From Halomicronema hongdechloris C2206 (GTDB lineage: Bacteria > Cyanobacteriota > Cyanobacteriia > Phormidesmidales > Phormidesmidaceae), in NCBI RefSeq assembly GCF_002075285.3, contig NZ_CP021983.2, forward strand, positions 3,420,001 through 3,452,000: a stretch of DNA of 32,000 nt. The letters are read 5' to 3'. The translations under genes were made by a program, and so were the position numbers. The number at the start of each line of letters is the position of its first letter. The first letter of the stretch is position 1. The notes beneath the pieces were generated by a model that saw only the letters and a program-made list of their open reading frames with translations, had not been told where the DNA came from and searched no databases. Below, one piece after another: positions 18,671 to 32,000 of the stretch.

Positions 18671-19516
<846 letters not shown>

Positions 19517-19539
19517 CGCCAACGGTTTATTTACTGTCG

Positions 19540-20346
19540 ATGGATTCCATGACCCGCATTATCGTTATCACATCCGGCAAGGGCGGCGTCGGCAAGACCA
19601 CCTGCGCGGCTAATCTGGGGATGGCCTTGGCTCAGCTAGACCAGCGAGTTGTCGTCGTTGATGCTGACTTCGGCCTGCGCAATCTAGATTTACTCCTGGG
19701 GCTAGAAAATCGCATTGTCTATACGGCCCTGGATGTGTTAGCCGAGGAGTGTCGGCTAGACCAGGCCCTGGTGCGAGATAAGCGTCAACCCCATCTGGCC
19801 CTGCTGCCTGCGGCCCAGAGCCGCTCTAAAGATGCCATCACCCCAGAGCAGATGACGCAGCTGGTGGATTCCCTCAGGGACGGGTTTGACTATGTGCTGA
19901 TCGACAGCCCCGCTGGCATCGAGATGGGCTTCAAAAATGCGATCGCAGCCGCCAAAGAATCCATCATCGTTACCACCCCCGAAATTTCTGCCGTTCGCGA
20001 CGCCGACCGTGTCATTGGCCTCCTGGAAGCCAACGACATCAAAGACATCCGCCTCATTGTCAATCGCCTCAAGCCAGCCATGGTGCAGGCAGACCAGATG
20101 ATGTCAGTACAAGATGTACAGGATATTCTGGCCATTCCCCTACTGGGAGTGGTGCCCGACGACGAGCGCGTGATTGTCTCCACCAATCGTGGCGAACCCC
20201 TAGTGCTAGAGAAAAAGCTCTCCCTGGCAGGAATAGCCTTCGCCAATGTGGCCCGGCGACTGCAGGGGCAATCGATCCCCTTCCTAGATTTAAATGCTCC
20301 CCACGACGACCTGTTTTCTCGCTTCCGTCGCCTCTGGCGGAACTGA
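19540..20346 (+). CDS. minD: Septum site-determining ATPase MinD
   Basis: '[16 protein letters not shown]' deviant Walker A, '[14 protein letters not shown]'. The probable true start is ATG 19549 (MTRIIV). Confidence 0.96.
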
Positions 20347-21107: not shown

Positions 21108-21645
21108 CCAGAGTCATCCCCGCCGCTGCCAGGATAAATAGAAGAAACCGCAGGCGCCGTGCAGCCGTGCGGCAAGCCATCCAGCCGAAGCCTTCCTAGC
21201 GGGAATAGGGCAGTAGCGGGTCAGAGATTGTCACCTTAATTTAGAGACTGGGTATAAGCCATTTTGCCAGACATGACCAATGGGTCAGAACGGCCTCAGA
21301 CCAGCCAAGATACGAGATTCCTATCATTGACGATTAATTGGTCAGGGTAAAGTATTATCAGCAGTAAAGCAGTCTGAATTAAGGTTTGCTAGAGTTTGAT
21401 CACTGCGAAGCGCTGTCGGTGCAGCCTAGCTTCCAGACGTGTGCAACGTCTTATCGAGGTCTCAGAGATCCTGCGATCAGGGCCTGGGGCCGCCGGCGCT
21501 TCGGAATTGCTGCTAAGGTCAGGTAGGATATGCCACCGATAAGACGGTATTTCAAACATTCCCTGACAGAGTGATTATATGGCCAACTATACTCTTCTAA
21601 GTCAGTGGTAAGTATTTGTTGATGGAATTGGGTAGACAGAGTGGC

Positions 21646-22293
21646 ATGAAGGACTCAAATTCGGGTGGGCAACGGAAACTCCTCCTAATCGATGATGATC
21701 CCAATCTCATCCTTCTCGTCAAGGATTACCTCGAGTTTCGTGGCTTTACCGTGACTACCGCAGACAATGGTCGGGCCGCTTTAGACAGCCTCGAGCAAGA
21801 GGCACCCGATATGATCATCTGTGATGTCATGATGCCTGAAATGGATGGCTACGCCTTTGTGGAGCAAGTCCGTCAGAACCCAGCGATGGAATGGATCCCC
21901 ATTTTATTTCTGTCGGCCAAGGGACAAAGTAATGATCGGATTAAGGGGCTAAATACCGGGGCAGATGTCTACATGGTGAAGCCCTTTGAGCCCGAAGAAC
22001 TCGTCGCCCAGGTGGAGTCTTCCCTCAAACAAGCCTCTCGCCTGATCCGCCAGCAGGCCAAGATGGGGGCAGAAGGCCCCACGATCCAGGTGCCGTTTGA
22101 TGTAGAGCTGACTCCCACAGAACTGAAAGTGGTGCAATTCGTAGCCCGCGGCATGGCCAATCGGGAAATCGCCGACGAGATGAATGTCAGCCAACGCACC
22201 ATCGAAAGTCACGTCAGCAATATGCTTGGCAAGACCGGCCTTCACAATCGTACGGAACTGGCTCGCTGGGCGATTGAAAACAATAAGGCATAG
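21646..22293 (+). CDS. NarL/LuxR-family two-component response regulator
   Basis: REC 'KLLLIDDDPN...PDMIICDVMMPEMDG...LSAKG'. GerE HTH 'LTPTELKVVQFVARGMANREIADEMNVSQRTIESHVSNMLGKTG'. Start at ATG 21646. Confidence 0.92.
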   Translation: MKDSNSGGQRKLLLIDDDPNLILLVKDYLEFRGFTVTTADNGRAALDSLEQEAPDMIICDVMMPEMDGYAFVEQVRQNPAMEWIPILFLSAKGQSNDRIKGLNTGADVYMVKPFEPEELVAQVESSLKQASRLIRQQAKMGAEGPTIQVPFDVELTPTELKVVQFVARGMANREIADEMNVSQRTIESHVSNMLGKTGLHNRTELARWAIENNKA

Positions 22294-25711: not shown

Positions 25712-26083
25712 ATGGCAACGTACCTTTCTCGAAATGGAGTTTCTATCCGCTTGCCAAAGGAACGATGGCAACACATTGTTCAGCGCCATGCCGACATCGC
25801 AGGGAAGCAAAATGTTGTTTTAGAGTCGGATACAGCAAGTATGGCCATAGCCAATTATCAAGCGGCACAACCCTATCTCCGGGTGCTGCCATTACTGCAA
25901 GAGCTGCCGAAGCAAGCGTTTTTCATGGTTTATGACGCCGAGGCAGATGTGTTGTACATCGATTTTGCCAATCCCCCGCATTCGGCAGTAGATAGCGAAC
26001 TGACGGAGGATGATATTGTGGTGCGCTATGGCGAGGATGATGCAGTGGTGGGGCTAACTGTTCTCGATGCCAGCAAGCGATAA
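25712..26083 (+). CDS. DUF2283-like protein fused to an N-terminal fragment of a putative partner toxin gene
   Basis: C-terminal 80 aa from the internal ATG 25841 ('MAIANYQAAQPYL...YDAEADVLYIDFANPPHSAVDSE...VVGLTVLDASKR') look like the cyanobacterial DUF2283 family. The first ~40 aa ('LSRNGVSIRLPKERWQHIVQRHADI') resemble the N-terminus of the small proteins usually encoded just upstream of such genes. Confidence 0.6.
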   Translation: MATYLSRNGVSIRLPKERWQHIVQRHADIAGKQNVVLESDTASMAIANYQAAQPYLRVLPLLQELPKQAFFMVYDAEADVLYIDFANPPHSAVDSELTEDDIVVRYGEDDAVVGLTVLDASKR

Positions 26084-26125
26084 GTCTCTATGCTTCAGGC
26101 GTCAGTGTTTTCTGAGTGGGGAACA

Positions 26126-26301
26126 TCCCTGAATAAGTTCGTGACTACCAGAAATATAAAGGGATGTAGCGAGATCCCTTCCTACCATGACGACAACTCT
26201 ATACTTTCGGCAAGGGTTAGCGCTGGCGGTTATCCTCTCGGGTCTCACCACCGGACAACCTGCCTGAGCCTGTTCCTCATTGTCCCCAAGCGAGAGCAGA
26301 G
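26126..26301 (+). repeat. Copy 2 of the ~178-bp dispersed direct repeat
   Basis: See 24852..25030. The hairpin AGGGAT-N8-ATCCCT (26160..26179) is again 7 nt before an ATG (26187). Confidence 0.85.
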
Positions 26302-26462
26302 CAGTGCCGGATGCACCAACGGCAAAGCTGATGACGGAGTTCTATCGGCAGGTGTCTCGAGGGCAGGCCTAGGCCCTGCGCCGGGCGATGCTGATGACGA
26401 TGCAGACCCATCCCGATCCCAAGGATTGGGCCGCCTTTACGCTCATCGGTGAAGCAGAATAA
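26187..26462 (+). pseudogene. Chimeric pseudogene: TIMP-like leader (26187..26300) fused in frame to a CHAT-domain C-terminus (26301..26462), with two nonsense codons
   Basis: A single frame reads MTTTLYFRQGLALAVILSGLTTGQPA*ACSSLSPSESR|AVPDAPTAKLMTEFYRQVSRGQA*ALRRAMLMTMQTHPDPKDWAAFTLIGEAE*. The second half aligns with the last ~53 aa of the 931-aa CHAT protein (AVPDVPTAQLMTAFYRHIAQGQTKAQALRQAMLATMQATPDPVDWAAFTLIGAAE). TGA at 26265, TAG at 26370. Confidence 0.8.
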
Positions 26463-26634
26463 TCAGTAAAGGCTGAGATGCGATCGCAAGTTCCAGCGAG
26501 CCAAAAGGATTGTCATCCCTCCCTTTCCCCGCTAAAGCTTGACGATATTGCTGCACCACCTGTAGCGAAGCATCGCCTCCGGTGGCGGCACTGTGTACCT
26601 GCTTCCCGCGAGGCGATCGCCTTGCGACTCACCC

Positions 26635-29600
26635 TTACCCCATGACCCGAATCGTCACAGTCACCTGAGTGCCATTGTCATCCGTCACCTGAATCGTATC
26701 AACCCCAGGCGTCGTCCCCGCCGTGTAGCGACCGCTGCTGTCGATGCTGCTGCCCTCAGACTCCCGATTGACAATGCTAAAGTCAAACGGACTCACCCCA
26801 CTTTGAACCGTAACGTTGGCCGTTGCCCCAGCCGCAACCTGAACCGGATTAATCGCAGCCGTCATCGGACGCACCATCACCTGCACCCTGGCCCGTCCTC
26901 CGTCACCATCCCGGTCAGTAATCGTGATCGTGTCCGCAACCTGAGCATTTTCACTGCCAGCGGTATAGCGCCCCGTCTCGTCGACTTCTGGTCCACTCGA
27001 ATTGGGCACGCTGACGACATAGCGATAGGGCGGTACCCCTCCCGTCACCGTAATTTGCGCCGTTCCACCACCATTCACCGTGGCGGGATTAATTACCGCA
27101 GTAATCGGCTTAACCTTGATGTCAAAGGGATAGTCTTTGCAGCCATAGTCGAAGGTAATGGTTTCGATTTCATCTGCTGCAATGGGGCCTTTGCCGGCGA
27201 TGAATTGCAGTTCTGACCGGTTAAATTGACTGCCTGGAATTTTAGTCACCAATGGACTTCCCGTCCCCACCGAAACCGTCGCACTATCAGGCAAATGATC
27301 GATCGTGAACGTGACTACGCCACCCACAAAGATTTCCTGCGTATCGGGAGTAATAGTCGGTTCATCAACGGTGATTTGAATCTCTTTCACCAAATAGTCC
27401 CGGGGGTTAGGGCCACTGGTGGTTAAGCCGTTGTCACCATAGGTTGAAAACACCGCCAGGCTGGCATCATATCTCGCAATCAACTCCAAAGTGTCCGTTC
27501 CCGCGGTGTCGCCAGCCGTGTACGTCAACCCGTTGACGCTACCGCCAGAGGCCAATACCCCCCCCTTAGCTTGGAGATGATAGCTTGCTTTTTCATCCCC
27601 TTTGAGTTTGATCGTTTGGCGCTGGCACACAAAGACCGCAGTCTCTGCGTCAACTTCAATAGCTTTAACCGTAATGTCTACCGTTTCACTCGTGGGCGGG
27701 GTACTGAAGCTGCCTTCTCCTTTCACCGTAAATGTTCCCGGCGTCAGGGAATGGAAGTAGAATGCTGAACCATTGATCACCTGAACGGGGGGAGTATTGT
27801 TTCGGTCAAGATTAATGCTATGGGGCAACTGATTCGGAGCGAGGGTGCCTGGCACCATTCCTGCTCCAGTCGGAACATTGTTGACCGCTGGGGTGATGCT
27901 GAAATCCACCGTAATTGGGGTGAAGGGAGGGCCACCCGTGGCTGGGTTAGGTGCAAAGACCACGTCAGCCCCAGTTACGCGGGTAAATTCGCCCACATAG
28001 ATCTCTGTTTTCTCGGCTTCTACCACCGTCTTATAGACATTGCCAGATTGGGCGCCGGCATTGCGCTCCAGCGCAGAATTAGTCTGTCCGCCGTTGATCA
28101 CCATGTCCCATTCATACACCCCCACACCGGGTACCCAATTATTCAGATCCCAGGCGTTGGAGATAATGGCAACCCACTTGTAGGGCAAGACACTAGACCA
28201 CCAGGTGGAAGGATTCACCCAGTTTTGTACGTCATCCGGGTCCACGTTGCCGCCACTCACCGCCCAGAGTAAGCCCCCGATCAACCAGGTGAGTCCGCCG
28301 ATGCTAATCTTTTCCCACCACTTATCCCCTTCGCTCAGATCCTCTTCTTGAATTAAGCGGACAATCAGGGGAACCGGCAGGGCATGGAAGAGCGGTCCCA
28401 ACAGCGCGTACTGGAACACATGCTGCATTTCGTGGCTATAGAGCGCTTCTGGGCGGTTGAGTTGCACGTCGGGAGCCTTGGGCACGATGTAGCGAGAGTC
28501 GGTGTCGGCTTCATTGCCACTGTCTTCACTGCTTTCGATGTAGACGATGTTGCCCATCGTGTAGGCTCGCCAAACAAAGAAGCTGCCGTTGAGCATCGTC
28601 CACGGCACGCCCTGCCGGGCTGAAGCGGTGAAGTTGATCCAGAAATGGGCCCGCTCATCAGCATCAAAGGGATTGGCAGGATTAAGACGCCCCCAGGGAT
28701 ACCACTTACGGTCAAAATCGAGGCGAAAGAGGGATTCAAAAAACCAGGGAATCCAGCCGATAATTTCCATCAGCAGGTTACCAATGACCAGAATTAGTCC
28801 GATGGTCGTGTTCGGTAGGGCCCAAGTAAGGGAACTGGGAATCGTCAGGAAAAACCACCAGGCACTGTGACCGTCTAGGTCGAGGTTGTTAATCGGGTCG
28901 TTTAGGCAGAAAACGTAGCGGTTTTGGCTGTCGGTTTGTTGCAACCAGTCTTGCAGCGCAGTGGACCGCGGTTTGCGATCGCCCCAAAAGTCTCGCTCCG
29001 GTTGAAACAACAGTCGCCAGTCATCGGCGCCAAAGGTATAGCTGTCGGGGGTGAGAAATCGACCCGTGGCCGGATCATAGTCCCGACTACCAAAGTCGTA
29101 GAAGCCAGTCACCACATCCAGCGGTTTACGGGCAAACAATGGGCTGCCCGTCGTGCCAAAGGGGGAGGGGTTGCCTTGCCAGGTGACTTGTCTCGTTTCG
29201 TTCGTAACTAACCAGACCGAACCCAAGTGGTCGGTGCCATAGAAGTCCACGGCAGTCTCTCCCACGGGGCCGCGAATGCATCCCAGACATTGCACCCCAA
29301 CCCAGAGATAGGTGGCGGTGACTCGACCCTGGGCATCGGTTTCGGCCAGCAGTTGATCGTTGCAGTCGTAGTGAAACAGCGTGATTTGGTCACCCATTTG
29401 CCGTTTGACCCGGCGGCCCAAACCGTCATAGGTGTAGTGAATCACTCGCCCATCTGGGAGCTGAACGGTGGTTAACTGCCCTTCCACATCGTAGGTGTAG
29501 CGGCTGAGTTGGTTTCCCTGGCGACGAGCGATGCAGTTGCCGTCTAGGTCGTAGTCAAAGTCAACTCGATTGCCCTCAGGGGAGGTCACTTGCAGGAGGC

Positions 29601-30564
29601 GATCGCCCCCTCCTGTCCCCACGTCATAGCAATAGCGAGTTACTCCGGTGTGATCTGCAACGGTTCTGCGGTTACCGTGGGCATCGTAGGTGTAGCGGGT
29701 AACCTGTCCAAGCGAATCTTGCCAGGTGGTCAACCGTCCTTCACCGTCGTAACCAAAACGTTGTGGCCCGATTTGCTCAATTTGCAGATCCCGGTAGATA
29801 TAGGGCCAATCTACTAGGAGTGTTCCCTCAGAAGTTTGGATAACGATCCGGGCGGGTTTGCCTTGGTCGTCTAGCAATCGCTGTCGGACGATGCCATTGG
29901 CAAAGCGCCAGGTTTGACCCGAGAGGGTGGCATAGGGGGTGCCGTGCTCGGTTTGGACGTGTAGCGTCTGGGTTGGTGAGTCGGGGTTGACCTCATAGCG
30001 GTAGTGCAACCATTGGTCTGATCCGGCAGGTCGTAGTCCGATACAACGTCCGGCGTCATCGTAGCGGTAGTCGCTTTGAAACGTTACGCCGTCGATGGTC
30101 TGTTGGATGGTACTGACCCGCTGCTGCGGATCGAACTGAACCACGGTGACACAGGTCGGGGTAGCAAAACACACCCAACCCAGTCCGAAATCAGTGATGG
30201 TGGTGTGTCCTCGGCGATCGCTGAGGCAACGCAACCGATTTTGAGCGTCGTAGCTGTAGTGCAGCACCCGTCCTGCTGCTGTCTGACGGCGAATCAGGTT
30301 ATCGCGGGCGTCGTAGGCAAAGGTCTGGTGGGTTCCATTGGGATAGTCTACGGCGATTAATCGTCCCCGATCGTCGTAGCGGTAGGTGGGGGAATCGGCA
30401 CGGTCATTCAACCCTTTCTGGGACGTTGCCGTTGACGATTGATCCGGGGTTAGCTGATGGGACTGAGCCCGGGTCGGCTGCGTCTGACCCGAGGGCGTCA
30501 CGGGGGACAAATTCATGCCCAGGACTGAAATGACTTTTTCCATCGAAGGTTCCCTCAGCAGCAT
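26635..30564 (-). CDS. RHS/YD-repeat protein with atypical C-terminal membrane / HExxH / Ig-like extension
   Basis: About 11 YD repeats (YRYDDRGRL, YSYDAQNRL, YTYDAHGNR, YTYDVEGQL, YTYDGLGRR...). RHS core elements 'GTDHLGSV', 'RDYDPATGRFLTPD', 'NRYVFCLNDPINNLDLDGH' (28867..28923). Then hydrophobic Trp-rich segments, 'HEMQH' (28420..28434) and repeated beta-rich Ig-like modules. Alternative start ATG 30543 has a GAGG 9 nt upstream. Confidence 0.9.
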   Translation of the reverse strand: MLLREPSMEKVISVLGMNLSPVTPSGQTQPTRAQSHQLTPDQSSTATSQKGLNDRADSPTYRYDDRGRLIAVDYPNGTHQTFAYDARDNLIRRQTAAGRVLHYSYDAQNRLRCLSDRRGHTTITDFGLGWVCFATPTCVTVVQFDPQQRVSTIQQTIDGVTFQSDYRYDDAGRCIGLRPAGSDQWLHYRYEVNPDSPTQTLHVQTEHGTPYATLSGQTWRFANGIVRQRLLDDQGKPARIVIQTSEGTLLVDWPYIYRDLQIEQIGPQRFGYDGEGRLTTWQDSLGQVTRYTYDAHGNRRTVADHTGVTRYCYDVGTGGGDRLLQVTSPEGNRVDFDYDLDGNCIARRQGNQLSRYTYDVEGQLTTVQLPDGRVIHYTYDGLGRRVKRQMGDQITLFHYDCNDQLLAETDAQGRVTATYLWVGVQCLGCIRGPVGETAVDFYGTDHLGSVWLVTNETRQVTWQGNPSPFGTTGSPLFARKPLDVVTGFYDFGSRDYDPATGRFLTPDSYTFGADDWRLLFQPERDFWGDRKPRSTALQDWLQQTDSQNRYVFCLNDPINNLDLDGHSAWWFFLTIPSSLTWALPNTTIGLILVIGNLLMEIIGWIPWFFESLFRLDFDRKWYPWGRLNPANPFDADERAHFWINFTASARQGVPWTMLNGSFFVWRAYTMGNIVYIESSEDSGNEADTDSRYIVPKAPDVQLNRPEALYSHEMQHVFQYALLGPLFHALPVPLIVRLIQEEDLSEGDKWWEKISIGGLTWLIGGLLWAVSGGNVDPDDVQNWVNPSTWWSSVLPYKWVAIISNAWDLNNWVPGVGVYEWDMVINGGQTNSALERNAGAQSGNVYKTVVEAEKTEIYVGEFTRVTGADVVFAPNPATGGPPFTPITVDFSITPAVNNVPTGAGMVPGTLAPNQLPHSINLDRNNTPPVQVINGSAFYFHSLTPGTFTVKGEGSFSTPPTSETVDITVKAIEVDAETAVFVCQRQTIKLKGDEKASYHLQAKGGVLASGGSVNGLTYTAGDTAGTDTLELIARYDASLAVFSTYGDNGLTTSGPNPRDYLVKEIQITVDEPTITPDTQEIFVGGVVTFTIDHLPDSATVSVGTGSPLVTKIPGSQFNRSELQFIAGKGPIAADEIETITFDYGCKDYPFDIKVKPITAVINPATVNGGGTAQITVTGGVPPYRYVVSVPNSSGPEVDETGRYTAGSENAQVADTITITDRDGDGGRARVQVMVRPMTAAINPVQVAAGATANVTVQSGVSPFDFSIVNRESEGSSIDSSGRYTAGTTPGVDTIQVTDDNGTQVTVTIRVMG

Positions 30565-30758
30565 CGGCAGTTGGAAAATAAGCTGAAATCGGGTTGTTCA
30601 GTCTCTGTGAACATTTGTAGATTCCCGTCTGCATGGGAATGACGGGTAAACGCCTGAATTTTTGTCAATTAAATAATCGGGTTTCATCGGATTAAAAATT
30701 GCGTTATTGGTATCAGAGCTGGGGGTCGGGGCCAAAGGTTAGAGCCTTTCCCGGTCGC

Positions 30759-32000
30759 CTAAGTTGGAGCCGCAGCCAGCATTTCAGACAAAGCCGTCTC
30801 GACATCCAACAATACCCGTTCCAGATCTTCCCGAATGTGCGCCACCAGCCGATCGAGTTGGTCGAGAATGTCTTGGGGGTCAAGGGTGGTGGCTAGGCGA
30901 ATCTGTTCAAAGGCATCATTGAGGGGCGCTTGTAGATTGAGCGGATTGAGCAGGTCGAGTGCCGATAGGATCTCGCCCCACTGCTCAGAAATGGTAGTTT
31001 GCAACCCCCTAAGACTGGTAATAATGCCGTCAATGATGTTCGTAAATCCCTGGGTTTTGCTGCTCAGGTCCAGTTCGGCCAGAAGGGTATCCGGATGGAG
31101 ACTGTCCAAAGCCGTCACCAACGGTGTGTACACGTCAGCCTCTAAATCGGCAATGATTCCCGCCGGATTGAGGGCTTCGAGCTGAGCCTTGAGCGGATTG
31201 TAGATTTCGCCAAAGGCTTGCTTCAGAAGCGTGGGTAAAAAGCCCGTGGTGTTGGCACTCAAGCGATCGAGAATGGGGGGTAACTCGGCCACAAAGACAT
31301 CGCCAAACTGGGCTGTTTTCACGGCAAATTGTTCGTACACTTGGTTGACTTCGTCCGCCAATCGTCCCGGATTGAGGATTTCAAGGTGGGCCTGAATATT
31401 CTCCAGACTTAGTGTTTCTTGCAGAAAAGGCGGAATCAGCCCGGTTAACTGTTCACTCAAAGGACCAAACGCAGCCGCCAATTTGCCCACATTCAAGCCA
31501 GTGGTCAGGCGTAGGGTGTTGCGATTGAGACTTTGGAATGTGGGGCGAAAGTCAGCCAGGGTCAAGTCTGGATTGAGGCTGGGAATTGTTCCGGCAATTT
31601 GGAAATAGTCGGTTTGCAAGGCGGCGGGCACTTGTACTATATCGATACTATCCAAAGCCAACAGCAGTTCCCCGTAGGCACTGTAAACATCGGCGACGAG
31701 ATCGAACCGTTGGGTAAAGTCAAAGCGGGCCAGTTGTTGTTGTAAATCCGAGGCAATTTGGGCGGAGAGATTGAGGGGAGCGATCGTCGCTAAAGCCTCC
31801 ACAAATTGGCCCTTTAGATGATTAAAAGCATCGACTAAGGTGGCTTCAGGAATTTGGGTTAAAGCTCCAACAACTTTGTTGTAAACATCTTCGACCGGAC
31901 GGAGAATATCCCCTGGCATAAATCCTAGGGTGTCATCTGCCGGGTCGGGCGTATCTGGGTCTAGATAAGTCTTCAGATCACCGGCACTGTTAAACCCATC
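30759..32000 (-). CDS. C-terminal part of a larger helical-repeat hypothetical protein (5' end outside the window)
   Basis: The frame stays open from 31919 to the window edge (hand translation ...DGFNSAGDLKTYLDPDTPDPADDTLGF-MPGDIL...). At least 7 copies of an (L/I)(N/H/D)P-xx-(L/I) motif spaced ~30-45 aa apart. No catalytic motif recognised. Confidence 0.75.
   Translation of the reverse strand, partial: DGFNSAGDLKTYLDPDTPDPADDTLGFMPGDILRPVEDVYNKVVGALTQIPEATLVDAFNHLKGQFVEALATIAPLNLSAQIASDLQQQLARFDFTQRFDLVADVYSAYGELLLALDSIDIVQVPAALQTDYFQIAGTIPSLNPDLTLADFRPTFQSLNRNTLRLTTGLNVGKLAAAFGPLSEQLTGLIPPFLQETLSLENIQAHLEILNPGRLADEVNQVYEQFAVKTAQFGDVFVAELPPILDRLSANTTGFLPTLLKQAFGEIYNPLKAQLEALNPAGIIADLEADVYTPLVTALDSLHPDTLLAELDLSSKTQGFTNIIDGIITSLRGLQTTISEQWGEILSALDLLNPLNLQAPLNDAFEQIRLATTLDPQDILDQLDRLVAHIREDLERVLLDVETALSEMLAAAPT

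Follow-up and report, generated by a model that had tools for sequence, protein, structure and literature searches.

DUF4157 is a core domain specific to extracellular contractile injection systems (eCISs); it contains an HExxH motif and is found at the N-terminus of eCIS-associated toxins or adjoining them, and these toxins lie at the 3' end of eCIS operons, often without immunity genes (PMC8213781). Tse5, a toxin of the Rhs family, combines an Rhs cage with a membrane-inserting, pore-forming C-terminus (PMC10684867, PMC9637101). Here we describe an RHS/YD-repeat gene on the minus strand of a 32,000-bp stretch of DNA of the filamentous cyanobacterium Halomicronema hongdechloris C2206 (contig NZ_CP021983.2, positions 3,420,001 to 3,452,000; 'the window' throughout, numbered from its first base), in which an RHS array and core are followed by a 743-amino-acid (aa) region with membrane segments, a DUF4157-like zincin core and Ig-like domains. 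The product is most likely a cargo or membrane partner of a contractile injection system (CIS) rather than an RHS toxin of the classical type. The best reading, to which we would give an even chance, is that the RHS part protects a membrane-inserting DUF4157-like fragment and releases it by cleavage; the fragment would be loaded and fired together with the tape-measure-like protein encoded by the neighbouring gene.

Sle2, a DUF4157 protein of Streptomyces lividans, binds proteins of the spike complex as well as the coiled-coil N-terminus of the tape-measure-like cargo Sle1 (PMC13277306), and Tme of S. davawensis unites DUF4157, transmembrane (TM) helices, a tape-measure-like region and a nuclease (PMC11126660). 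Cytoplasmic or membrane-anchored CISs have been documented in filamentous cyanobacteria and actinobacteria (PMC8894136, PMC12237407, PMC12998442). In the thylakoid-anchored system (tCIS) of Anabaena, Cis12 and Cis13 attach the particles to thylakoids and the DUF4157 proteins are presumed cargo (PMC8894136), and firing in S. coelicolor needs the bitopic membrane protein CisA (PMC12237407). RHS_repeat is listed in a supplementary table of Geller et al. 2021 with nine eCIS-operon genes from three phyla (odds ratio 1.6, q = 0.86), as a non-significant 'cloud' domain that is not discussed there. No paper was found in the literature that reports a fusion of RHS repeats with a DUF4157-like domain or a link between RHS repeats and a CIS tape-measure gene. 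A preliminary description of the locus, made from the sequence alone, had noted that this architecture is not known to have been described, and the literature search agreed: the building blocks (Rhs cage, DUF4157 core, Ig-like domains, CIS) are known, and their combination and obligate pairing with a tape-measure-like gene are undescribed as far as the searchable literature goes.

Genomic context and conservation of the gene pair

The decisive fact about the RHS gene is its genomic context, that is, its membership of a CIS cluster. Alignment of homologs and the GenBank record (ASC72317.1 / WP_187329432.1) both place the probable true start at M8 (window 30543), which gives a protein of 1302 aa; residue numbers below follow the full 1309-codon open reading frame (ORF). 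GC content of the gene is 55.5%, compared with 57.3% in window positions 1–26000, and a scan for promoters and terminators around it gave results at chance level. The adjoining upstream ORF, previously taken for a complete gene of 386 aa, proved to be part of a longer gene that continues beyond the window edge, of which it encodes the C-terminal 413 aa: these share 37% identity (E = 2e-89) with the C-terminal end of the 1106-aa protein preceding the Kovacikia homolog. A homolog of this helical tape-measure-like protein is the upstream neighbour of the RHS gene in ten of the ten loci compared (the window, L001, L002/L003, L004, L005, L006, L007, L011, L012 and L013), with the two genes either overlapping by 14–38 nt or lying 11–218 nt apart. 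In the eight loci holding a complete gene its product is 1102–1118 aa long. It matches PHROG tape-measure families (8e-11 and 4e-7) and is helical and repeat-rich. Several phage tape-measure proteins, Tme and Sle1 possess TM helices, whereas no convincing one was found in this protein. The intergenic spacer may contain an internal promoter or RNA element; it is 218 nt long in L011, while the actinobacterial loci have overlapping genes instead.

Around the pair lie genes of a contractile, phage-tail-like machine. The Kovacikia locus (L001) encodes a baseplate wedge/Baseplate_J protein, a baseplate protein and two tail-fibre proteins with an S74 chaperone domain; L004 has Baseplate_J near the pair, and L007 has a gp25-type sheath initiator, Baseplate_J and a Big_1/invasin protein. 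A sheath gene lies upstream of the pair in L005, where a baseplate hub and a Phage_base_V spike directly follow the RHS gene. L017 shows synteny with the 5' side of the actinobacterial L002/L003 and carries in order genes for sheath, a GpU-like protein, a YqbQ-like hub, spike, PAAR, gp25 and Baseplate_J. As a stand-in for the window's own upstream cluster we used L011, a JGI contig whose DNA is 86% identical to window 26645–32000 and whose tape-measure-like gene is 90% identical to the window fragment. Its gene order is Baseplate_J (637 aa), a baseplate protein (434 aa), a phrog_5417 protein, a tail-fibre-like protein (522 aa), two small ORFs, the tape-measure-like protein (1104 aa) and the RHS protein (1307 aa).

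The upstream fragment and the syntenic loci together indicate that the window holds the 3' end of a CIS operon with the RHS gene as its last gene. Three options had been left by the preliminary description: a membrane-inserting effector, a surface-anchored protease, or cargo of a contractile injection or other secretion system encoded beyond the window. It is the CIS option that is borne out by synteny, by the tape-measure-like 3' end inside the window and by the Baseplate_J, baseplate and tail-fibre-like genes of L011. Judged from sequence and gene order, the RHS gene is best explained as a dedicated CIS component that would be co-inherited and co-expressed with the tape-measure-like protein.

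In the window and in L001, L002, L004, L006, L007, L013 and L011 (as far as the contig end, 225 nt past the gene), the run of same-strand genes ends with the RHS gene, and an immunity gene is absent downstream. The two exceptions are L005, with its baseplate genes, and L012, in which another same-strand gene follows. The absence of a downstream immunity gene, noted earlier for the window, was thus confirmed there, the next ORFs being convergent. Neither PAAR nor VgrG features were detected in the protein by Pfam and NCBIfam, and the first 60 aa show no hydrophobic peak of the kind expected for a signal peptide, again in line with the earlier observation. Identity as an Rhs effector of a type VI secretion system (T6SS) was considered and rejected, as the protein is devoid of PAAR and VgrG domains and no T6SS genes were seen.

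A search with the 743-aa post-core region against 5.8 billion proteins yielded 29 clusters from cyanobacteria and actinobacteria (e.g. Kovacikia minuta CCNUW1 and a Solirubrobacteraceae metagenome-assembled genome, respectively), nearly all of them 1000–1280 aa long with RHS_repeat/YD-shell domains. The RHS core joins the post-core module in the same way in some 25 independent homologs of full length, taken from NCBI, JGI, ENA and Logan assemblies, and the junction (NRYAFCLNDPVNNxDLDGH/SAWWFFLTIPSSLTWALPNT, with the slash marking the boundary) is the best-conserved stretch of the full-length alignment. Identity to the window protein was 38% in the YD repeats, 54% in the RHS core, 70% in the first membrane segment, 72% in the HExxH segment and 46–57% in the Ig-like domains. 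Scanning 185,579 species genomes with patterns derived from the module gave three loci, a lower bound owing to the limits of such patterns; the Kovacikia locus was missed. The family is rare but spans two phyla.

These data bear on two alternative explanations. The first is an assembly or annotation artefact, in which separate genes were fused by a missed stop codon or a frameshift close to the core/module junction, an event that the preliminary description had considered near position 28860. Nothing beyond the unusual post-core length favours it. The reading frame is uninterrupted, about 29 clusters share the whole architecture and the independent homologs agree at the junction, leaving the artefact a negligible probability. 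Separately, P0141/L020 was tried as a split version of the gene and rejected as a frameshift-ridden assembly. In L020 (ENA contig_7576) and P0015, the cluster or gene copies are broken into many small ORFs, probably reflecting indel-rich long-read assemblies, not pseudogenes.

The second is a polymorphic Rhs toxin of the ordinary kind, sent out through a T6SS, Sec or some other route, whose proximity to a phage-tail cluster would be coincidental and whose immunity gene would have been lost. Such a toxin would be in keeping with the genuine RHS repeats and core, with the existence of short RHS toxins of comparable size and with the GenBank name of the product, 'Putative deoxyribonuclease RhsC' (or 'RHS repeat protein'). 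Searches of Pfam, NCBIfam and PDB, however, revealed no nuclease domain in the protein and no toxin family in its post-core region; the nuclease identity implied by the GenBank name was therefore rejected, and the name is misleading and unsupported. A match of the C-terminal 740 aa to a characterised Rhs toxin family, which had been anticipated as one way in which the novelty of the protein might dissolve, did not materialise in these searches. Chance proximity fits poorly with the same gene pair recurring at all ten loci in cyanobacteria and actinobacteria, and export by the usual routes with a protein devoid of PAAR, VgrG-binding and signal sequences. Since the post-core region is more conserved than the YD repeats and an immunity gene is absent from the window and seven of nine other loci, the protein does not look like a polymorphic toxin, and we consider this explanation very improbable. 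The initial framing of the region as toxin cargo with a missing immunity gene finds no support, the post-core being the most conserved part of the protein.

Architecture of the RHS protein

An AlphaFold2 model was obtained for aa 8–1130 from an alignment of 23 sequences, with a mean predicted local distance difference test score (pLDDT) of 73.6. The first ~50 residues and most of aa 567–815 were poorly predicted. A Foldseek search of this large model against viral structures returned nothing beyond generic beta-repeat (MORN) and Ig matches. The first ~50 aa are of low complexity, as had been described, with pLDDT ~30 for residues 1–47. The family alignment shows a conserved 12–14-aa motif at the very N-terminus (M-E/Q-K/R-x-I-S-x-F/L-G-M/L-N-L-P), making this region a candidate docking or packaging signal. 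A disordered N-terminus with a conserved peptide would be compatible with known CIS cargo signals.

The YD repeats recognised in the preliminary description were recovered by Pfam RHS_repeat (PF05593, E = 7.6e-33 over six stretches) and TIGR01643 (E = 1e-23), and aa ~60–500 were modelled as a beta-hairpin array with pLDDT 85–94. Foldseek matches in PDB were, in order, Tse5 (8cp6, E = 7.5e-26), VgrG-Rhs (8qja), Tse15, RhsA and RhsP, then teneurins and TcC; Tse5 is both the top structural match and the sole sequence match in PDB. Alignments to solved Rhs cores covered ~580–620 of ~1020–1080 aa columns (best 577 columns, rmsd 5.6, TMt 0.36), with TMt values of 0.41–0.46 for TcC structures, so the RHS array amounts to about half a cage, roughly TcC-sized. 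We infer that the 743-aa post-core part cannot plausibly fit inside such a shell. The length of the YD region had been thought unusual, but hundreds of RHS proteins of 640–980 aa in total exist, some with known toxin domains. They came from a search with the RHS N-terminal half, which returned generic short RHS proteins and not the family, probably owing to a word-index limit on repeats.

The RHS core closes at aa 548–566, as first described, with the terminal motif NRYVFCLNDPINNLDLDGH, which is almost invariant across the family. TIGR03696 matches the core with 43.4 bits against a cut-off of 32.5, its match being split into two stretches by a ~32-aa insert. The core ends in DLDGH, where DPxGL would be usual. 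Two candidate catalytic aspartates, D507 (in GRFLTPD) and D562 (in DLDGH), are both invariant, and D507 aligns with the Asp of the Tse5 QDP motif. They lie 55 aa apart because of the insert, which is a signature of the whole superfamily; according to PDB entry titles, the cleavage residues of Tse15 are D1369 and D1391, 22 apart, and the cleavage residue of TccC3 is D651. An autocleavage site is predicted after H566.

The 743-aa post-core region contains hydrophobic Trp-rich helices, an HExxH motif and Ig-like modules, a composition described earlier and upheld by hydropathy, alignment and the AlphaFold2 model; the region produced no matches in a sequence search of PDB or in PHROGs. Trp makes up 6.7% of aa 567–880. 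Hydropathy peaks at aa 579–611, 716–740 and 752–772, the first (peak value 2.03) being part of a 43-residue uncharged stretch. Apart from the invariant E600, aa 567–609 contain no charged residue, and N596 is nearly invariant. Over 18 sequences, the 15 residues before this first membrane segment hold no K/R and the 15 after it a mean of 2.3. This pattern would be compatible with an N-out/C-in helix or with a re-entrant hairpin turning at LPNT, and not with an N-in signal anchor.

The membrane segments are also the starting point of the main rival explanation, that of an adaptor or anchor in the producer's own membrane. The protein would reside in the cytoplasmic or thylakoid membrane and tether or trigger a cytoplasmic CIS in the manner of CisA or Cis13, its contact with the baseplate being made by the RHS part or, alternatively, by the DUF4157-like and Ig parts. 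Consistent with this, family-wide identity in the first membrane segment is 70%, the sequence is conserved rather than polymorphic and comes with neither a toxin domain nor an immunity gene, and the hosts are filamentous cyanobacteria and actinobacteria, lineages with cytoplasmic or membrane-anchored CISs. Moreover, the loss of exactly two hydrophobic helices in some members would preserve the sidedness of the remaining domains. The basic flank after the first TM segment, however, disfavours a CisA-like N-in/C-out signal anchor, and the tail-fibre-type proteins of Kovacikia (with the S74 domain) and of the Halomicronema-like contig L011 suggest extracellular targeting. An adaptor would also leave the retained, putatively autoproteolytic RHS core unexplained, and its likeness to CisA and Cis13 is one of layout, not of sequence comparison. 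On balance we rate an adaptor unlikely, although serious enough to be kept in mind next to the favoured reading of a cleaved, membrane-inserting fragment.

In the zincin core, the HExxH motif is HEMQH (aa 711–715, window 28420–28434) within HEMQHVFQY (aa 711–719), and H711, E712, H715, Q718 and Y719 are invariant in the family. The insert with two hydrophobic helices that follows is missing from P0006, P0008, P0029 and all tier-2 relatives (defined below), from which it appears to be dispensable. E833, in the conserved segment beyond the insert, is a candidate third zinc ligand.

Of the Pfam families, PF13699 (eCIS_core, formerly DUF4157) alone recurs on the module, in 5 of 22 members (best E = 0.094). 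On the window module it remains below the gathering score (E = 0.33, 11.6 bits against a cut-off of 22), and it matches 3 of 51 distant relatives at E < 0.01. A bridge is provided by P0130, a stand-alone protein of 161 aa that was found by the module profile (E = 6e-4) and scores 26.3 bits on PF13699, above the cut-off. P0130 shares with the module the WALPxT helix, the GNVVxF strand, HEMTHVRQY and the FE..AR.NAG motif, and hhalign of the module against the P0130 family gave 96.1% probability (E = 3.7e-9, 74 columns). On the strength of this bridge and of the profile alignment, we conclude that the zincin core is remotely homologous to DUF4157/eCIS_core, as a membrane-flanked relative that is not a member by the Pfam criterion. 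The DUF4157 link suspected in the preliminary description thus stands as remote homology and fails at the PF13699 threshold. P0130, P0134 and P0135 (157–161 aa) are stand-alone proteins with one TM helix and a zincin core, one of them above the eCIS_core threshold.

A profile of aa 567–868 searched against 1.84 billion representative proteins identified 115 proteins at E < 1e-3, which fall into three tiers. Tier 1 is the window protein's own family. Tier-2 proteins have ~600 aa of RHS followed by DPNGH/WSF..WTLPNT..HELRHTNQY (slash as above) and either stop just after the module or continue into unrelated C-terminal extensions. Tier-3 proteins (1700–2500 aa) have an N-terminal RHS array, a TM helix near aa 520 and a ~650-aa insert, after which come the motifs HExxH..Q...WGP and FE.DA..SGD.Y, as in the module. 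C-terminal domains among the wider relatives include tyrosinase, PG_binding (PG_binding_1 in one) and SH3-like domains, and some relatives have no extension. This pattern resembles that of a core domain with a variable payload. Tier-2 and tier-3 genes also follow a tape-measure-like gene where upstream DNA is present (L012, L013). The wider superfamily of CIS-linked proteins with RHS, TM and HExxH elements comprises P0031–P0133, with an example at L013 7354–12708.

AlphaFold2 is confident after aa ~850 and builds the C-terminal ~440 aa with confidence into beta-sandwich domains, of which the last two are SprB-like repeats and the final one is missing in many homologs. Foldseek matches of this part include ICAM-5, nectin-like 5 and FdeC, i.e. 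Ig-like adhesins. Such an array would suit a structural or adhesive part of the particle, fibre-like or distal on the baseplate, in which the Ig-like domains bind the target, the RHS part is a mere scaffold and the HExxH site is a cell-wall peptidase that aids penetration. Phage tape-measure and tail-tip proteins often carry peptidase domains, one relative has PG_binding_1, and the L005 gene sits between the tape-measure-like gene and the hub. Fibre genes are already present in the cluster, however; some tier-2 relatives lack any C-terminal extension, and a conserved 43-residue uncharged segment would be unexpected in a soluble fibre. A structural or adhesive part therefore seems improbable to us. 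Coordinates of all features are collected in the table.

Table. Features of the RHS gene and its immediate surroundings in the window
Feature	Window position	Strand	Basis or description
Whole ORF	26635..30564	(-)	1309 codons plus stop, open throughout
N-terminal region, aa 8-59	30388..30543	(-)	Conserved motif, then low-complexity linker, predicted disordered
YD/RHS-repeat beta-hairpin array, aa 60-470	29155..30387	(-)	Pfam, NCBIfam, AlphaFold2, Foldseek
RHS-associated core, aa 471-566	28867..29154	(-)	TIGR03696, alignment
Trp-rich membrane segment, aa 567-612 (SAWWFFLTIPSSLTWALPNT...)	28729..28866	(-)	Hydropathy, alignment
Zincin core, aa 613-726	28387..28728	(-)	Contains invariant HEMQHxxQY
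Insert with two hydrophobic helices, aa 727-815	28120..28386	(-)	Hydropathy, alignment
Conserved segment, aa 816-868	27961..28119	(-)	NSxFERNAG (invariant S830, E833, R834) and VGxFTRV
Four to five Ig-like beta-sandwich domains, aa 869-1309	26638..27960	(-)	Pfam, alignment, AlphaFold2, Foldseek
Spacer between the two genes, 215 nt	30544..30758	(-)	Small hairpin CCCGTC-N11-GACGGG
3' end (413 codons) of ~1100-aa tape-measure-like gene	30759..32000	(-)	Runs off the window
Non-coding stretch downstream	26453..26634	.	No same-strand ORF, no immunity candidate

The convergent plus-strand ORFs downstream of the RHS gene lie at 25712–26083 (DUF2283) and 26090–26452. They are in the same frame with one stop codon between them, compatible with a plus-strand pseudogene, and are probably what the preliminary description had called by that name. 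By eye, the N-terminus of the DUF2283 ORF (123 aa) resembles DUF4258, and the following 120-aa ORF has no family match; together, 25712–26452 may be a decayed toxin-antitoxin fusion. eCIS operons are regulated by GerE- or BTAD-type regulators (PMC8213781). A LuxR/GerE-type response regulator is encoded at window 21616–22293 (+), a GerE-domain gene is present in L001 (21643–22440), and BTAD regulator genes flank the actinobacterial clusters L002, L004 and L006. The genes minC and minD (window 18677–20346, +) are some 6 kb away from the 3' end of the CIS operon, and those between them and the operon (a ferredoxin-like protein, a response regulator and a nucleoside hydrolase) look like ordinary chromosome.

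Proposed mode of action and its significance

Under the favoured reading, the RHS aspartyl protease would cut after DLDGH (aa 566), and the RHS half-cage would keep the 43-residue uncharged N-terminus of the released fragment soluble. The fragment would then have the standard layout of a CIS effector, a DUF4157-type core followed by an extension. Docking on the tape-measure/spike complex might be mediated by the DUF4157-like domain, by the RHS N-terminal peptide or by both, which would parallel Streptomyces Sle2 and Tme. Upon sheath contraction the fragment would be expelled together with the tape-measure-like protein and would insert, as one or two helical hairpins, into the membrane that it meets; with hairpin insertion no large domain would need to be translocated. 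The HExxH...E site could subsequently act as a metallopeptidase or as a metal-dependent binding site, and the Ig-like domains could bind envelope components. An immunity gene would not be needed, as is common for eCIS-associated toxins.

The lack of TM helices in the tape-measure-like partner suggests a division of labour between the two genes. Taken further, though here we can be no more than tentative, this leads to a 'split tape measure', in which the ruler and the membrane-penetrating or pore-forming part would be separate proteins. The RHS half-cage would serve as a built-in chaperone for a membrane-inserting DUF4157-type zincin whose translation is coupled to that of the tape-measure-like protein, with which it would be fired, and the RHS protein would represent an unrecognised class of CIS component.

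Several observations weigh against the cleaved-fragment reading. The C-terminal end consists of Ig-like domains and not of a recognisable toxin, and a C-terminus that is conserved, not diversified, would suit a structural or adaptor role equally well. Cleavage is a prediction only, made for aspartates spaced 55 and not 22–23 aa apart and for a motif that departs from DPxGL. Homology to DUF4157 spans just ~74 columns around HExxH. Modelled alone from 22 sequences, the module yielded no usable structure (mean pLDDT 54.7), and Foldseek returned noise (E > 3) instead of a match. In L005 the pair is embedded in structural genes, with the tube genes on one side and the hub on the other. Finally, a folded RHS array is wider than the lumen of a tail tube, which leaves the place of loading unclear.

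DUF4157 is the one core eCIS domain to which no function has been assigned, and in this family a DUF4157-like zincin is set between membrane helices that are conserved. The loading of large or hydrophobic cargo into eCIS-type machines is likewise an open question, for which the family offers a natural experiment: the module stands behind a putative self-cleaving RHS cage, and its gene is locked to a tape-measure-like gene across two phyla. If the RHS part is indeed a cargo chaperone, the Rhs encapsulation known from Tc toxins and the T6SS would also be used by eCIS-type systems of cyanobacteria and actinobacteria, which would be relevant to the engineering of particles for hydrophobic payloads. 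If the split tape measure is correct, DUF4157 would gain a membrane context. Should the protein be an adaptor instead, multicellular bacteria would have a second answer, unrelated to CisA and Cis13, to the problem solved by those two proteins.

Comparison with known systems

The window protein shares with the Rhs/TcC cages (Tse5, RhsA, Tse15, TcC, teneurin) the YD hairpin array (Foldseek E~1e-25), the RHS core and both candidate aspartates, but has roughly half of a ~1020-aa core, a ~32-aa insert between the aspartates and DLDGH in place of DPxGL. Its closest counterpart in this group is Tse5, which likewise combines an Rhs cage with a hydrophobic, membrane-inserting C-terminus; being an Rhs-caged pore-forming toxin, Tse5 also contradicts the initial premise that Rhs cargo is always a small soluble toxin. 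Rhs toxins have hypervariable post-core regions, whereas the 743 aa of the window protein are conserved and include Ig-like domains. T6SS Rhs effectors differ in that the window protein has no PAAR, VgrG, T6SS link or immunity gene, and the eCIS-type cluster has its own PAAR and spike.

M48 and M56 gluzincins (HtpX, Ste24, BlaR1) also have an HExxH helix, hydrophobic helices, a distant conserved Glu and a small catalytic domain flanked by TM segments. The resemblance of the module to them is one of layout only, and no Pfam, NCBIfam or PDB sequence matches to M48/M56 families were found.

CisA and Cis13 belong, like the window protein, to CIS clusters of multicellular actinobacteria or cyanobacteria, and have a conserved TM segment that joins a CIS-facing part to another domain. 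Compared by description and not by sequence, they differ in having neither RHS repeats nor a zincin. CisA is a bitopic N-in/C-out protein of 468 aa, whereas the charge bias of the window protein would favour the opposite orientation or hairpin insertion.

With the DUF4157 proteins (eCIS toxins, Anabaena Alr3311/3312, Sle2, Tme) the likeness extends to HExxHxxQ, remote profile homology and a place in CIS clusters, usually at the 3' end and adjoining or fused to cargo, with immunity often absent. The window domain differs in scoring below the Pfam threshold, in being internal, after 566 aa of RHS, and not N-terminal, and in having conserved membrane helices on its flanks and an extra ERNAG motif downstream. 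Sle1 and Sle2 offer the parallel for the gene pair itself, being a DUF4157-type protein partnered with a tape-measure-like protein.

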